Positions 94 to 4,277 are shown, counted from the first letter of the stretch. The stretch is 5,567 nt of DNA from a virus (IMGVR_UViG_2698536379_000014); one strand, 5' to 3'. Notes: a model not told the origin generated them from the letters alone. Numbers and translations: made by a program.

Positions 94-1059
94 ATGAAGC
101 TCCTTTTTGCTGAACGCCCGCTGGTTATAAACACGCAGCTGGCGATGAAAATTGGTCTGAACGAAGCCATCGTGTTGCAGCAGCTGCATTACTGGTTGAG
201 AGATACCGGTTCCGGCATGGAATGTGATGGTGTTCGCTGGATTTATAACACAACAGAACAATGGCTGGAACAGTTCCCGTTCTGGTCAGAGTCAACGTTA
301 AAACGCGCATTTGCAAGTCTGAAAACGCTGGGGCTTTTGCGTTGCGAAAAGCTCAACAAATCAAAGCGTGATATGACTAATTTTTACACGATTAATTACG
401 AGAGCGAGCTTTTAGATGGTGGCAAAGTGAGCGAATCCATCAGGTCAAAATGCGCCGCTCCATCAGGTCAAAATGACACGATGGAAGAGACCAAAATGAC
501 ACGCTCCATTGGTTCAAAACGACCCAATGTCATCGGGTCAAAATGGCCCGATGATCTTACAGAGAATACAACAGAGATTACTACAGAGAATAAAAACACT
601 TCTCGTCCGGAAGCTTCGCAACCGGACATGCAGACGGCTGAACAGGATTTTTTAACCCGACATCCTGACGCGGTTGTGTTCAGTGCAAAAAAACGCCAGT
701 GGGGCAGCCAGGACGATTTGGCGTGTGCGCAGTGGATCTGGGGGCGAATCGTGAGTCTTTACGAGCAGGCCGCCAGCGATGATGGCGAGATTTCGCGACC
801 GAAAGAACCCAACTGGACCGCATGGGCCAACGACGTGCGCACAATGCGGATGCTGGATGGCAGAACTCACAGACAAATTTGTGAAATGTTTGGTCGGGTG
901 CAGCGGGATCCATTCTGGGTAAAAAATATCATGAGTCCGTCAAAGCTTCGCGAAAAATGGGATGAACTGGTTATCCGCCTGGGGCGTTCGTCTGTACAGC
1001 GTTGTGTGAATCATATTTCTGAGCCGGATACCGAAATTCCGCCGGGCTTCAGGGGGTAA
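94..1059 (+). CDS. Lambda-O-type replication initiation protein (origin-binding initiator)
   Basis: 321-aa ORF. The N-terminal ~110 aa contain an HTH-like segment (TLKRAFASLKTLGLLRCEK). The middle of the gene encodes the iteron array and A+T-rich repeats, i.e. the protein linker is encoded by the origin, which is the hallmark lambda O / ori-lambda arrangement. TAA stop at 1057-1059. Start context is unusual: a G6 run (88-93) abuts the ATG at 94, so the exact start is uncertain. Confidence 0.75.
   Translation: MKLLFAERPLVINTQLAMKIGLNEAIVLQQLHYWLRDTGSGMECDGVRWIYNTTEQWLEQFPFWSESTLKRAFASLKTLGLLRCEKLNKSKRDMTNFYTINYESELLDGGKVSESIRSKCAAPSGQNDTMEETKMTRSIGSKRPNVIGSKWPDDLTENTTEITTENKNTSRPEASQPDMQTAEQDFLTRHPDAVVFSAKKRQWGSQDDLACAQWIWGRIVSLYEQAASDDGEISRPKEPNWTAWANDVRTMRMLDGRTHRQICEMFGRVQRDPFWVKNIMSPSKLREKWDELVIRLGRSSVQRCVNHISEPDTEIPPGFRG
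436..553. repeat. Origin iteron array, five ~17-bp iterons at 23-24 bp periodicity
   Basis: Direct repeats TCCATCAGGTCAAAATG at 436-452 and again exactly at 459-475; a degenerate copy at 482-498 (TGGAAGAGACCAAAATG); TCCATTGGTTCAAAACG at 505-521; GTCATCGGGTCAAAATG at 529-545. Several iterons have flanking inverted arms (CATTGG 507-512 / CCAATG 524-529; CATCGGG 531-537 / CCCGATG 547-553), as in lambda ori iterons. Confidence 0.7.
559..594. repeat. A+T-rich region of origin, three 12-bp tandem repeats
   Basis: ACAGAGAATACA (559-570), ACAGAGATTACT (571-582), ACAGAGAATAAA (583-594), immediately right of the iterons. This is the position of the DNA-unwinding element in ori-lambda. It encodes the TENTTEITTENK linker of the O-like protein. 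Confidence 0.6.
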
Positions 1060-1099: not shown

Positions 1100-1525
1100 G
1101 TGGCAAAAGTATTTACACAAGAAGAGCGGGAAAAAATTAAGAGGCAAGTTGTTGAACTCGTGCGCCAGAGTGGGCGTGAGACGTTACGACAACTGGAAGC
1201 GAAAACAGGTGCGACAAGATATCTGATGAGCGTTCTCGCCAGAGAGCTGGTTGCCAGTGGCGATGTATACAACTCTGGTTACGGGTTATTCCCGTCTGAA
1301 CAGGCTCGTAAGGACTGGCAAAACGCCCGCAAAAAACTCTCAAGGGCAAAGCTGAAGAAAAAAACATCTGTGGTTGATCCGGACCTTATCTGGTCGTTAC
1401 CAGACGGCGAAATACGCCGCTACGACAGGCGCCTAAACATAATCTGTCGCGAGTGCCGGAAGAGTGAAGCTATGCAGCGTGTACTGGCTTTCTATCAGGG
1501 TAATTTTCAGGAGGCGGTACTGTGA
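1100..1525 (+). CDS. Hypothetical basic protein with HTH-like segment, in the position normally held by a helicase loader
   Basis: 141-aa ORF with GTG start at 1100 and a GGAGG SD at 1091-1095. Lys/Arg-rich, with an HTH-like stretch (ETLRQLEAKTGATRYLMSVLAREL). It does not resemble lambda P from memory and no Walker ATPase motif is seen. Its TGA stop (1523-1525) overlaps the downstream GTG (1522-1524). Confidence 0.6.
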   Translation: MAKVFTQEEREKIKRQVVELVRQSGRETLRQLEAKTGATRYLMSVLARELVASGDVYNSGYGLFPSEQARKDWQNARKKLSRAKLKKKTSVVDPDLIWSLPDGEIRRYDRRLNIICRECRKSEAMQRVLAFYQGNFQEAVL

Positions 1526-1901
1526 GTGAAATTAGCTATCAGGCTTCAATTACCGCTGGCATTCGCATCAAAGGAGAGGAGCATGGAAATATAGGGGCAA
1601 ATCCAACCCTCGTAATCAGGTTAATTTTCTTTATGAGCCATCGGAAAGACCATATTGCCATCACGCCTCTGTTCGGGTTGACGAAAAAGAGCGTCAGGTC
1701 CGCTGTAAAATCTGCGGTGCAGTTGTGGAGCCGTTTGACTGGATGCTCTCTGTGGCGAAAAGAGAAACCAGACTGGCAGATGATGTAAGGCTATTGCGCC
1801 AGGAGGAACAGGAAAGGCGGAAAAATATAGAAAAGTTAATTCAGATTGAGCGTAACGCGAAAGCGCGGATACGCAGGGCGACAAAATCCAGAACTGAATA
1901 A
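1522..1901 (+). pseudogene. Frame-disrupted gene (possible pseudogene, recoding site or sequence error) encoding a Cys/His-motif protein with charged C-terminal helix
   Basis: Three overlapping pieces. (a) Frame-1 ORF 1522..1788 (88 aa), GTG start coupled to the upstream stop, but the region after ~1590 uses rare codons (AGG, ATA, GGG, CGG) and is hydrophobic. (b) A frame-0 reading frame is open 1536..1901 and looks strongly coding (…NFLYEPSERPYCHHASVRVDEKERQVRCKICGAVVEPFDWMLSVAKRETRLADDVRLLRQEEQERRKNIEKLIQIERNAKARIRRATKSRTE) but has no ATG/GTG/TTG before the GTG at 1725 and ATG at 1743. (c) A strong SD (AAAGGAGAGGAG, 1570-1581) plus ATG at 1583 in the third frame reads only M-E-I-stop (TAG 1592-1594). 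Removing one base in 1586-1592 would join ATG 1583 to the frame-0 ORF. Confidence 0.45.
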
Positions 1902-1951
1902 ATAAATTTAGCGCTGTAAATAAAATCTAATCCTTAACTGGAGGTATATTT

Positions 1952-2164
1952 ATGTTAAATACACAGAAAGCCATTAATGCGGAAAAATATAACGAGTGGG
2001 CAAGAAAATTCTCTGAGCAGATTTTTAAAATTACTGGCGATGAGAATGCGGCAAAAAATGAATTAGAACCGTGGACGCCTGAAGGAGCCGACCCAAATTA
2101 TTGCTGGAGGGAGGTTGATCCAGTTGATGCTGCAAATGAAGCTATGAGTTATCACAACGATTAA
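1952..2164 (+). CDS. Hypothetical small acidic protein (70 aa)
   Basis: ATG at 1952 with GGAGG SD at 1940-1944 (7-nt spacing). Net acidic composition (about 14 D/E versus 8 K/R/H). Preceded by an AT-rich intergenic region (1902-1951). No family recognised. Confidence 0.55.
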   Translation: MLNTQKAINAEKYNEWARKFSEQIFKITGDENAAKNELEPWTPEGADPNYCWREVDPVDAANEAMSYHND

Positions 2165-2172
2165 TGTCAGGA

Positions 2173-2190
2173 GGCCGCCCGAAAGGGCGG
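2173..2190 (+). other. GNRA-tetraloop hairpin between two small genes
   Basis: GCCGCCC-GAAA-GGGCGGT: 7-bp GC-rich stem (one G-U pair) with a GAAA loop and no downstream U-tract. It sits 8 nt after the stop at 2164 and 6 nt before the ATG at 2197. Its 3' arm GGGCGG is the only SD-like sequence for the downstream ORF. Confidence 0.4.
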
Positions 2191-2196
2191 TAATGA

Positions 2197-2415
2197 ATGG
2201 TCACATTATTTAGAAAAAAATATCCGCGAAAGAGTAGAACAACAGAATTTCTGTTTCTCATTCTGTTTATCGTGTTGATGATACCGATATCCCCGTTAAT
2301 CCTAGCCTGGATAATCGGAAAAATAATTGAGCCAGTTATTGAATTGTATAACGACGTGGTATGGGCGTCATTCAACACACTGCACAATAAAATTAATCCG
2401 TATAAGGAAAACTGA
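2197..2415 (+). CDS. Hypothetical small membrane protein (72 aa)
   Basis: Strongly hydrophobic core (FLFLILFIVLMIPISPLILAWIIGKII) consistent with one or two transmembrane helices. Very AT-rich coding region. Stop TGA 2413-2415 lies 1 nt before the next ATG (2417). Weak SD, so confidence is limited. Confidence 0.4.
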   Translation: MVTLFRKKYPRKSRTTEFLFLILFIVLMIPISPLILAWIIGKIIEPVIELYNDVVWASFNTLHNKINPYKEN

Positions 2416-2416
2416 T

Positions 2417-2680
2417 ATGGCAACTTTGACAAAAAAAGAACGGGCATGGTTGAACGAATTACAGGAAGTTCTTGATCGCTGTCCATCACCGAAAAAAATT
2501 GGCTTTTACACCATTGGCGATAAAAGCATTTACCTGTATGACCTACGCCGCATGGATGAAATCATGGAGGCTCTTGATAATCGTTCGTCGATGGATTGGT
2601 GTGTTGCTGTTCATGATATGAATGCAGGGTTTGATGAAAAGATTTTGTTCCCCTCATCAGTTGAAAGCACTGCGGGTTAA
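2417..2680 (+). CDS. Hypothetical protein (87 aa)
   Basis: ATG at 2417 preceded by AAGGAAAA (2404-2411). Tightly packed with neighbours. The track ORF 2327..2680 is the same frame with an upstream ATG that overlaps the previous gene and has no SD. No family recognised. Confidence 0.6.
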   Translation: MATLTKKERAWLNELQEVLDRCPSPKKIGFYTIGDKSIYLYDLRRMDEIMEALDNRSSMDWCVAVHDMNAGFDEKILFPSSVESTAG

Positions 2681-2690
2681 GGAGTAACAC

Positions 2691-3560
2691 ATGACCACTA
2701 TTACCAAAGAACGTATTGAATTGTTCATTAAAAATCCGCTTGAAAACGGGCTTACCCGTGGTGAACAAATGGAACTGGCACGGATTGCGCTGGCATCGCT
2801 GGAAGCAGAGCCGGTGGCAAAGATTATAGCTCATTACCCATTAGGGGTTGACGTAGGCAAACAAAAATTCGTACAGGCCATTAGAGAGCTTCCTGACTTT
2901 GGCGGATATCTATTTGCCGCCCCTCCAGCGCCGATAGTGCCGGAAGAAATGTATTGGCAGGATGCGCCAGTTGAAGGCAGCAGCAAAGCGACTGCATACG
3001 CTACAGGCTGGAACGATTGCCGCGAAGCCATGCTTCAGTCCGGAAACTTTCGGGAAAATAAAGATTCGTCAACCAATAATTTTCGGAAAATCCCGGAAGC
3101 GTCAACCAGCTCTCCGGTAACTCCGGCTCTTCTGCCTGGTGGTTTCACCATTGAGGAGGCGAAGGAATTACATGAAGACCTGGTACGCAGCCACATAAGC
3201 AAGGCCTTAAGTGGCGAAAAGATGAAAAAGAAAGATCGCGATGCTGATTTGCGCTGGATTCATGGCGTTATAGTTCAGGCAGCGTGGTTTGTAAAAGCAT
3301 CACTGGAGCAGAATGCACTATCGGGCAACTATCCGGTAACTCCGGATAGTTGGATAAGCTGTAGTGAGCGAATGCCGGATACCAAAACAGCCGTTCTTGT
3401 TGCCAGGGATTTTGGCAGGAAAGGTGACTGGCGAATGAAATGGGCGACTTACATCCCGGGGCATCCTGACGCTAATGATGGGTGGATAATACCTGGTGCG
3501 TCGTGGATACCATCACACTGGATGCCTCTACCAGAACCGCCGCAGGAGGTGCGCCAATGA
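2691..3560 (+). CDS. Phage protein with DUF551-like C-terminal domain
   Basis: 289-aa ORF with AGGAG SD at 2680-2684. The C-terminus (DSWISCSERMPDTKTAVLVARDFGRKGDWRMKWATYIPGHPDANDGWIIPGASWIPSHWMPLPEPP) matches my recollection of the conserved DUF551 signature found in lambdoid phage proteins (ending W-MPLPEPP). The N-terminal two thirds are unrecognised. Stop TGA 3558-3560 overlaps the next ATG (ATGA). Confidence 0.75.
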   Translation: MTTITKERIELFIKNPLENGLTRGEQMELARIALASLEAEPVAKIIAHYPLGVDVGKQKFVQAIRELPDFGGYLFAAPPAPIVPEEMYWQDAPVEGSSKATAYATGWNDCREAMLQSGNFRENKDSSTNNFRKIPEASTSSPVTPALLPGGFTIEEAKELHEDLVRSHISKALSGEKMKKKDRDADLRWIHGVIVQAAWFVKASLEQNALSGNYPVTPDSWISCSERMPDTKTAVLVARDFGRKGDWRMKWATYIPGHPDANDGWIIPGASWIPSHWMPLPEPPQEVRQ

Positions 3561-3821: not shown

Positions 3822-3858
3822 TTTGCGGTAAAGCGAGAGTTAAGTAGAATTGCTGCGG
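3822..3858 (+). promoter_or_regulatory. Predicted sigma70 promoter and start site of the hok mRNA
   Basis: -35 TTTGCG/TTGCGG (3822-3828), 16-17 bp spacer, -10 TAGAAT (3845-3850). The predicted start near 3857 coincides with the beginning of the 5' element that is complementary to the mRNA 3' end. Confidence 0.4.
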
Positions 3859-3904
3859 GTGCTTGAGGCTATCTGCCTCAGGCATGAACACCAAAAGGCA
3901 GATA

Positions 3905-3980
3905 GAGAAAAGCCCCAGTTAACATTACGCGTCCTGCAAGACGCTTAACATTAATCTGAGGCCCAATCTATGTCTCACAA
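3905..3980 (-). ncRNA. sok: Predicted Sok-like antisense RNA (coordinates approximate)
   Basis: Minus-strand promoter candidate: -35 TTGCCT (plus coords 4013-4008), 17-bp spacer, -10 TAACCT (3990-3985), giving a start near 3978 and a transcript antisense to the mok SD/start (3957-3972). This matches the known hok/sok layout. The 3' end and terminator could not be defined from sequence. Confidence 0.3.
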
Positions 3981-4182
3981 ATGTAGGTTAGCCTCTTACG
4001 TGCCGAAAGGCAAGGAGAAGCAGGCTATGAAGCAGCAAAAGGCGATGTTAATCGCCCTGATCGTCATCTGTTTAACCGTCATAGTGACGGCACTGGTAAC
4101 GAGGAAAGACCTCTGCGAGGTACGAATCCGAACCGGCCAGACGGAGGTCGCTGTCTTCACAGCTTACGAACCTGAGGAGTAA
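3970..4182 (+). CDS. mok: mok-like overlapping reading frame (70 codons) in the hok leader
   Basis: ATG 3970 with SD TGAGG at 3957-3961 (8-nt spacing), 57 nt upstream of and in frame with the hok ATG, ending at the same stop. Its size matches the ~70-codon mok frames described for hok loci. Whether it is translated as an extended Hok or only serves coupling cannot be told from sequence. Confidence 0.4.
   Translation: MSHKCRLASYVPKGKEKQAMKQQKAMLIALIVICLTVIVTALVTRKDLCEVRIRTGQTEVAVFTAYEPEE
4027..4182 (+). CDS. hok: Hok/Gef-family type I toxin (HokD/RelF-like membrane peptide, 51 aa)
   Basis: Translation MKQQKAMLIALIVICLTVIVTALVTRKDLCEVRIRTGQTEVAVFTAYEPEE. It has the family hallmarks: N-terminal TM helix, LVTRKxLCE motif and conserved C-terminal TGQTEVAVFTAYE. 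From memory it is identical or near-identical to E. coli HokD (RelF). SD AAGGAG 4012-4017 (9-nt spacing); stop TAA 4180-4182. Confidence 0.9.
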   Translation: MKQQKAMLIALIVICLTVIVTALVTRKDLCEVRIRTGQTEVAVFTAYEPEE

Positions 4183-4251
4183 GAGACCAGGCGGGGGAGA
4201 AATCCCTCGCCACCGCTGATGTGTCAGGCATCCTCAACGCACCCGCACTTA

Positions 4252-4277
4252 ACCCGCTTCGGCGGGTTTTGTTTTTT
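4252..4277 (+). terminator. Rho-independent terminator of the hok transcript
   Basis: ACCCGC-UUCG-GCGGGU: 6-bp GC-rich stem with a UUCG tetraloop (4252-4267), followed by TTTTGTTTTTT (4267-4277). Confidence 0.8.

Follow-up and report, generated by a model that had tools for sequence, protein, structure and literature searches.

A portable tetraloop hairpin upstream of prophage accessory genes: a candidate hairpin-bridged ribosome binding site

Introduction

The window analysed here is a 5,567-nucleotide stretch of viral DNA (IMGVR_UViG_2698536379_000014) in which positions 1902 to 2680 hold three small open reading frames (g1, g2, and g3) and, between the first two, a GC-rich hairpin with a GAAA loop. 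Which of the reading frames on the two strands are genes, do the three small ones form a unit, and what does so stable a hairpin do immediately upstream of a start codon? The original prediction took the region for accessory cargo, expected the hairpin to sequester the only Shine-Dalgarno (SD) sequence available to g2, and proposed that translation of g2 may depend on ribosomes terminating upstream. We address the genes, their neighborhood, and the hairpin in turn.

Results

The window is a stretch of a Rac-like lambdoid prophage of E. coli, and 901 bases around 1902-2680 are 100% identical to O55:H7 and other genomes. The predicted drop in base composition across about 1900-2420 is real: GC content is 0.382 for 1902-2420 and 0.394 for 1902-2680 against 0.493 window-wide, and 1902-2680 is the lowest-GC 779-nt stretch in the window. 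Gene order in the identical RefSeq genomes begins with racR and two HTH/YdaT-type genes, and continues with a replication-type HTH protein of 321 aa (window 94-1059), DUF977 (1100-1525), and a 5′-truncated pseudogene fragment (1599-1901) matching phrog_1621 over profile positions 64-121; 3′ of the three small coding sequences, which are thus placed downstream of replication genes, lies DUF551 (2691-3560), with hokD and DUF968 next. Packing with gaps of 1 to 10 nt was found for g2 and g3 (1 nt) and for g3 and the next gene (10 nt), but not for g1 and g2, which are separated by 32 nt holding the hairpin. A scan of 1500-3000 for promoters and terminators returned chance-level matches only.

Other parts of the window carry features of their own. 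Five tandem 23-nt repeats at 438-553 (CATCAGGTCAAAATG...), within the 321-aa replication-type ORF (94-1059), resemble origin iterons lying inside the gene of an initiator, the arrangement of lambda O. The 16-nt sequence GGTAATTTTCAGGAGG occurs twice without mismatch as a direct repeat, at 1080-1095 and 1499-1514, each copy just 5′ of a GTG start (1100 for DUF977, and 1522), and is another shared RBS/junction motif. The segment 1522-1901 is a decayed gene; within it, 1560-1583 (GCTGGCATTCGCATCAAAGGAGAG) looks like a relic recombination joint, because it is identical to the hairpin-less leader preceding other DUF4014 genes. Inside the DUF551 gene, an imperfect 31-nt tandem repeat (3045-3108) encodes (N/K)FRE/KI… segments, and a further 20-nt repeat is found at 3107-3126 and 3326-3345. 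A hok/sok type I toxin-antitoxin locus spans 3857-4275, with the hokD ORF at 3970-4182 and an Rfam match to sok at 3857-4032 (E=2.7e-28); strong hairpins follow at 4191-4210 and 4250-4269, and the latter has a CUUCGG loop and also a U-tract, as a terminator would.

All three small ORFs, on the plus strand, are annotated coding sequences in the identical RefSeq genomes, and each has a full-length match to a PHROG family. The protein sizes and properties are those predicted: g1 (1952-2164; WP_000935420; phrog_4659, E=3e-50) encodes an acidic protein of 70 aa with a pI of 4.5; g2 (2197-2415; WP_000256993) encodes a hydrophobic protein of 72 aa (GRAVY +0.44); and g3 (2417-2680; WP_000224233; phrog_1714), which has its own SD, AAGGA (2404-2408), encodes a protein of 87 aa. 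The g2 protein belongs to DUF4014 (PF13198; phrog_1832), fitting the entire profile (positions 1-72 of 72) at 86.9 bits, well over the cutoff of 23.2; it has a basic N-terminus, one hydrophobic (membrane) helix at about residues 18-41, and an amphipathic C-terminus. For g1, which is confined to Escherichia/Shigella, the AF2 model (pLDDT 85) consists of three helices, and a structure search with it gave no PDB match. The widest-spread of the three is g3, found in Enterobacterales prophages including those of Klebsiella, Edwardsiella, Serratia, and Pectobacterium; its residues C22, P23, G29, G34, Y41, and D42 are invariant, and it may be a small alpha/beta fold without a solved relative.

Variable sites are most numerous at third codon positions in all three genes (first, second, and third positions: 10, 13, and 26 in g1; 8, 7, and 27 in g2; 5, 7, and 23 in g3). 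The same test is uninformative for the 115-aa antisense ORF at 2142-2489 on the minus strand, because this frame and that of g2 share the wobble position, which is also why the antisense ORF tends to stay open; we used a census of stop codons among alleles instead. The g2 frame is intact in 62 of 64 distinct alleles, and 8 of these 62, especially the most diverged ones, carry stops in the antisense frame, both ends of which fall in neighbors that vary between loci. We therefore reject the antisense ORF as a gene. The real genes are the plus-strand ones, as the original prediction had preferred.

Searches of Pfam, NCBIfam, PADLOC, PDB, and fold databases assigned no function to g1, g2, or g3, for which the original prediction could assign none from sequence: NCBIfam returned nothing, PDB profile searches returned nothing significant, and PADLOC models found no family at E<=0.1 among the three genes or their neighbors. 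Two labels are attached to g2 in databases, 'sugar acetyltransferase inhibitor' in some records and 'released from the phage upon host infection' for its PHROG; neither could be traced to a paper, and literature searches for DUF4014, for 'sugar acetyltransferase inhibitor', and for the hairpin sequence gave no matches. The description of the three genes as AT-rich, mosaic, accessory-type cargo of no assignable function is borne out: they are ordinary, already-catalogued prophage cargo, and nothing points to a defence or anti-defence role.

Nor do the three genes travel as a trio. Among 5426 complete E. coli genomes, g1 is carried by 620, g2 by 1012, and g3 by 979, and the whole block by 400; at 83 DUF4014 loci, g1 lies directly upstream in 24 and g3 directly downstream in 27, and both neighbors are present in only 14, contrary to the idea of a conserved unit. 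In phage records the pieces are found separately, with breakpoints at gene borders; some follow the replication genes, and others lie in the early-left region, close to Ea22, abc, and int. We conclude that g1, g2, and g3 are three independent accessory genes in an early operon of a Rac-like lambdoid prophage. They are like the lambdoid accessory genes of the 'moron' type and of the nin and ea regions in being small and AT-rich, in shuffling independently, in lying 3′ of replication genes or in the early-left operon, and in exchanging at short conserved junctions; they differ from autonomous morons in being operon passengers, without a promoter or terminator of their own in our scan.

The hairpin between the g1 stop and the g2 start is present as predicted. 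The centroid fold places it at 2174-2191 on the plus strand (CCGCCC-GAAA-GGGCGG, a C(GAAA)G tetraloop), with six G-C pairs (2175-2180 with 2185-2190), a terminal G2174.U2191 pair, a loop at 2181-2184, an energy of -14.4 kcal/mol, and a pair probability of about 1.0. Among 20-nt local folds it ranks first in the window for stability (-15.5), and beats the minimum of each of 20 dinucleotide-shuffled sequences. Directly 5′ of the stem is SD2, a plus-strand SD sequence AGGAGG (2169-2174), 22 nt upstream of AUG 2197. Because the stem begins at 2174, AGGAG (2169-2173) lies outside it, and G2174 alone can join, as the terminal G.U; contrary to the original prediction, the hairpin does not sequester the sole SD-like sequence. 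The linear SD-AUG distance of 22 nt shrinks to 5-6 nt once the hairpin folds, and the spacer between hairpin and start codon, AAUGA (2192-2196), contains no SD-like motif. When 151 nt are folded together, the SD is partly paired with distant sequence and the AUG lies in a weak 4-bp stem.

A nine-codon mini-ORF (MSGGRPKGR*, 2164-2193, plus strand) can be read across the junction; its ATG shares bases with the stop of g1 (TAATG), its codons cover the SD and the hairpin, and 3 nt lie between its last base and ATG 2197. It could relay ribosomes in this window, and is probably fortuitous, because no such frame arises where g1 is missing and because the cassette described below fixes its codons; cassette copies preceded by the leader alone read ACATCAGGAGG and have no ATG, hence no mini-ORF.

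Several established roles for such a structure were considered and set aside. Rfam, searched at E up to 10, returned nothing at the hairpin or its leader. A scan of 2170-2200 on both strands found no Rho-independent terminator, and the tail following the stem is UAAUGAAUGG; the absence of a U-tract excludes an intrinsic terminator. A lambda-type nut site (boxA plus boxB) is unlikely: no boxA-like sequence occurs near 2150-2175, four bases rather than five make up the loop, the scan returned no promoter, and there is no Rfam match. Ribosome bypass or frameshifting to fuse g1 and g2 was rejected: take-off and landing codons that match are missing, two in-frame stops (TAA 2191 and TGA 2194) lie ahead of ATG 2197, and g1 and g2 are also found apart from each other.

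The SD and hairpin form part of a cassette, CAGGAGG-CCGCCC-GAAA-GGGCGG-TA, and the block CAGGAGGCCGCCCGAAAGGGCGGTA is found 5′ of at least five unrelated gene families: DUF4014, DUF7167 (MRKFKIIIE..., small and acidic), and families whose proteins begin MTELTKE..., MQDIKEN..., and MEITKER.... The distance from the last stem G to the ATG is constant within each of the five (6, 7, 9, 9, and 11 nt), and in four of them, with spacers of 6-9 nt, there is no SD-like motif between hairpin and AUG. The exception is the MEITKER family, which has its own GGAG between hairpin and ATG; the cassette can therefore be present without serving as a needed SD. About three quarters of the DUF4014 upstream regions read ...CAGGAGGCCGCCCGAAAGGGCGGTAA(T/G)(G/A)AATG, and the remainder a plain ...AAAGGAGAGTGAT(A/G)TG. 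DUF4014 and MTELT genes that lack the cassette all have a canonical SD 5-8 nt upstream; the copies bearing it have none in the spacer.

Of 5426 complete E. coli genomes, 2128 (about 39%) carry the cassette core, in up to five copies each, and it is commoner there than g1, g2, or g3. In an exact-match scan of one genome per species, the block was found in E. coli and Shigella only, plus one likely contaminated MAG; variant cassettes lie upstream of DUF4014 alleles that the source databases name for Salmonella enterica. Full E. coli-type leaders with cassettes were also matched in a phage record named 'Actinobacillus phage vB_Apl-pPE4' (PP818812.1, locus L083; 103.5 bits) and in a 3-kb contig from a Collinsella MAG bin (JAIHTM010000290.1; 97.3 bits); the host label of the one and the bin label of the other look doubtful. 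A further candidate, the 24-mer CAGGAGGCCGCCCGAAAGGGCGG at locus L125 (11415-11500), was rejected as a cassette: it lies inside a terminase small-subunit coding region (…AQEAARKGGNETM…; …QEAARKGG…), belongs to the gene of an unrelated phage, and has no tie to the cassette.

To the left of the cassette lies either the end of g1 or a conserved leader of about 70-90 nt, AATCCTTAACCGGAGGGATTTCTGCACCCTCAGAACATCAGGAGG...; most copies are about 90 nt from the stop of the previous gene, with no ORF ending nearby. Ribosome coupling consequently cannot be the general mode of the cassette, and with the SD outside the stem as well, the idea that g2 translation hangs on ribosomes terminating upstream loses its footing. 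The intact leader contains a first SD of its own (GGAGG), which is base-paired within a hairpin, GAGGG(9 nt)CCCUC. Intact leaders with this first hairpin include those of L083 (2464-2535) and L225 (2920-2983); the divergent L225 keeps the first hairpin with changed pairs (GGAGGC/GCCUUU). The second hairpin of L225 differs (UUCGGC/GCCGAA), and no SD precedes it.

The window preserves this leader in two pieces. Its 5′ half (1902-1951, plus strand) comprises an AT-rich spacer (26% GC) and a junction motif, AATCCTTAACTGGAGG (1929-1944), which repeats at more than 200 places in the fetched prophage loci; within the motif, GGAGG (1940-1944) acts as the SD of g1, 7 nt before ATG 1952. The gene g1 is an insertion inside the leader, where it replaces GATTTCTGCACCCTCAGAACA, and the 3′ half of the leader resumes at 2167. 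Because g1 sits inside it, a covariance model of the intact leader (R1) matches the window in two halves, at 1929-2011 (16.6 bits) and 2139-2201 (30.5 bits). Mosaic breakpoints coincide with both edges of the cassette block.

Conservation within the cassette is uneven. In a sample of loci that was partly gathered using the hairpin pattern itself, all but one of 69 distinct leader-anchored sequences keep GGAG unchanged, and the exception has no ATG in the sequence shown 3′ of the hairpin. The spacer between the two hairpins is more variable than either the SD or the 3′ stem arm, and together with one loop position it holds the most variable sites; the loop variants GGAA, GGCA, UAAA, and AAAA are all tolerated. 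Alignment A1 has pairing in 97.3% of cells and a single compensatory change (G-C to A-U); in so young and nearly invariant an element, covariation does not rise above column shuffles. Substitutions in the stem are mainly C to U, keeping U.G pairs, and the cassette of a DUF4014 allele named for Salmonella enterica (CUGCUC/GGGCGG) has two wobble pairs. Of 31 variant cells, which are not independent events, 22 still pair in the plus-strand RNA versus 4 in that of the minus strand, an asymmetry to which a C-to-T mutation bias on the coding strand could contribute. Taken together, the comparative evidence would favor selection on the fold of the plus-strand RNA rather than on the DNA.

Discussion

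The anatomy of the element, its stability, conservation, and portability, and the lack of another SD are matters of observation. What they may add up to, in a reading we favor tentatively, is a portable hairpin-bridged RBS for g2 that doubles as a joint at mosaic boundaries. In the linear state, the sole SD, AGGAG (2169-2173), would be too far from AUG 2197; folding of the tetraloop hairpin (2174-2191) would loop out the intervening nucleotides, leaving about 5 nt, and the 30S subunit could then hold SD and AUG together, as in T4 genes 38 and 25. Because at least five unrelated modules have the block at their left edge, the block would also provide the short shared homology at which accessory genes are swapped, and any gene landing behind it would inherit a start signal. 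The gene g1 would be a later insertion into the leader that uses the first SD of the leader; in copies without g1, this SD is paired in another hairpin (GAGGG...CCCUC).

In phage T4, a hairpin cuts the SD-AUG spacing from 22 to 5 nt in gene 38 and from 27 to 11 nt in gene 25, and initiation drops when the structure between SD and AUG is destabilized (Uzan and Miller 2010, PMC3014915). The cassette shares with these genes a linear SD that is too distant (22 nt, compared with 22 and 27 nt), a stable hairpin lying wholly between SD and AUG, and a short folded spacing (about 5 nt, compared with 5 nt for gene 38 and 11 nt for gene 25). It differs in belonging to temperate lambdoid prophages of E. 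coli, Shigella, and Salmonella; in serving at least five unrelated genes at mosaic boundaries, whereas each T4 structure serves a single gene; and in that enhancement was proven by mutation in T4, whereas for the cassette we infer from sequence that the hairpin enhances rather than blocks initiation. A split RBS is a plausible reading of the hairpin. Some points weigh against it: initiation may be SD-independent on the A/U-rich spacer, the MEITKER family has a GGAG of its own, the second hairpin of L225 lacks an SD, and both SD and AUG are predicted to be partly paired.

The serious rival, rather unlikely as the whole explanation and compatible with an RBS role, is that the cassette is a mosaic joint and perhaps an mRNA-stability hairpin with no part in initiation: the block would offer short homology to phage recombinases, the genes downstream would be translated without an SD from A/U-rich spacers, and the hairpin might bar exonucleases, or 5′-end-dependent RNase E after cleavage of the AU-rich leader. 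Breakpoints falling exactly at both edges of the block, a block more widespread than any gene that flanks it, and a MEITKER family that keeps its own SD behind the hairpin are all as expected for a joint, and homologous recombination at short conserved flanks is documented in lambdoid mosaics (PMC3945230; PMC2327257). However, a joint alone leaves unexplained why an invariant GGAG abuts the stem, why the distance from hairpin to ATG is a constant 6-9 nt, and why every DUF4014 or MTELT copy without the block has a canonical SD; and the bias toward wobble pairs in the plus-strand RNA speaks against a purely DNA-level role.

An inhibitory hairpin, melted only by ribosomes arriving from g1, perhaps by way of the mini-ORF at 2164-2193, would extend the original prediction and strikes us as improbable. 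It draws on the local geometry: 10 nt separate the stop of g1 from the stem, the mini-ORF crosses the whole hairpin, the AUG is predicted to be partly paired, and the stem hides its own 3′ arm, GGGCGGU, which resembles an SD with one mismatch and lies 5 nt from the AUG. The TAATG at the end of g1 and UAAUGAAUG before g2 also resemble the UGAUG/TAATG junctions of termination-reinitiation coupling. Such coupling differs, however, from an arrangement in which a 32-nt gap with a hairpin of -14 kcal/mol separates the genes and the cassette mostly has no upstream ORF nearby; most cassettes lack the ATG of the mini-ORF as well, the true SD is outside the stem, and g1 adjoins only 24 of 83 DUF4014 loci. 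We give still less credence to a binding site for an RNA-binding protein, whether a translational repressor or an antitermination element (boxB/nut-like or put-like), formed by the hairpin and the leader hairpin together. Two conserved stem-loops in a leader of about 70 nt, with the spacer between them and one loop position the most variable sites, would suit such a site, and the combination of a G-C stem with a GNRA-type loop is loosely reminiscent of lambda boxB; but the loop is a true tetraloop rather than the pentaloop of boxB, and tolerates four variants, no Rfam family (E up to 10) or boxA-like sequence accompanies it, early promoters are distant, and a start codon always follows the element by 6-11 nt.

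Returning to the hairpin-bridged RBS, we would go one step further, with more doubt, and suggest that the cassette is possibly a standardized 'expression socket', a common left joint in lambdoid prophages of E. coli, Shigella, and Salmonella at which each incoming gene would be translated by means of the looped-out hairpin. On this view, a mechanism seen in single genes, T4 38 and 25, would reach a mobile element that is tied to no gene family and that about 39% of E. coli genomes carry. If the bridged reading is true, the cassette would be a second, far more widespread natural case of a looped-out hairpin inside an RBS. It would help gene-start prediction and models of RBS strength, which assume a linear SD-AUG spacing; and it would tie the location of mosaic recombination joints to the translation of newly acquired accessory genes, two subjects that are usually treated apart.
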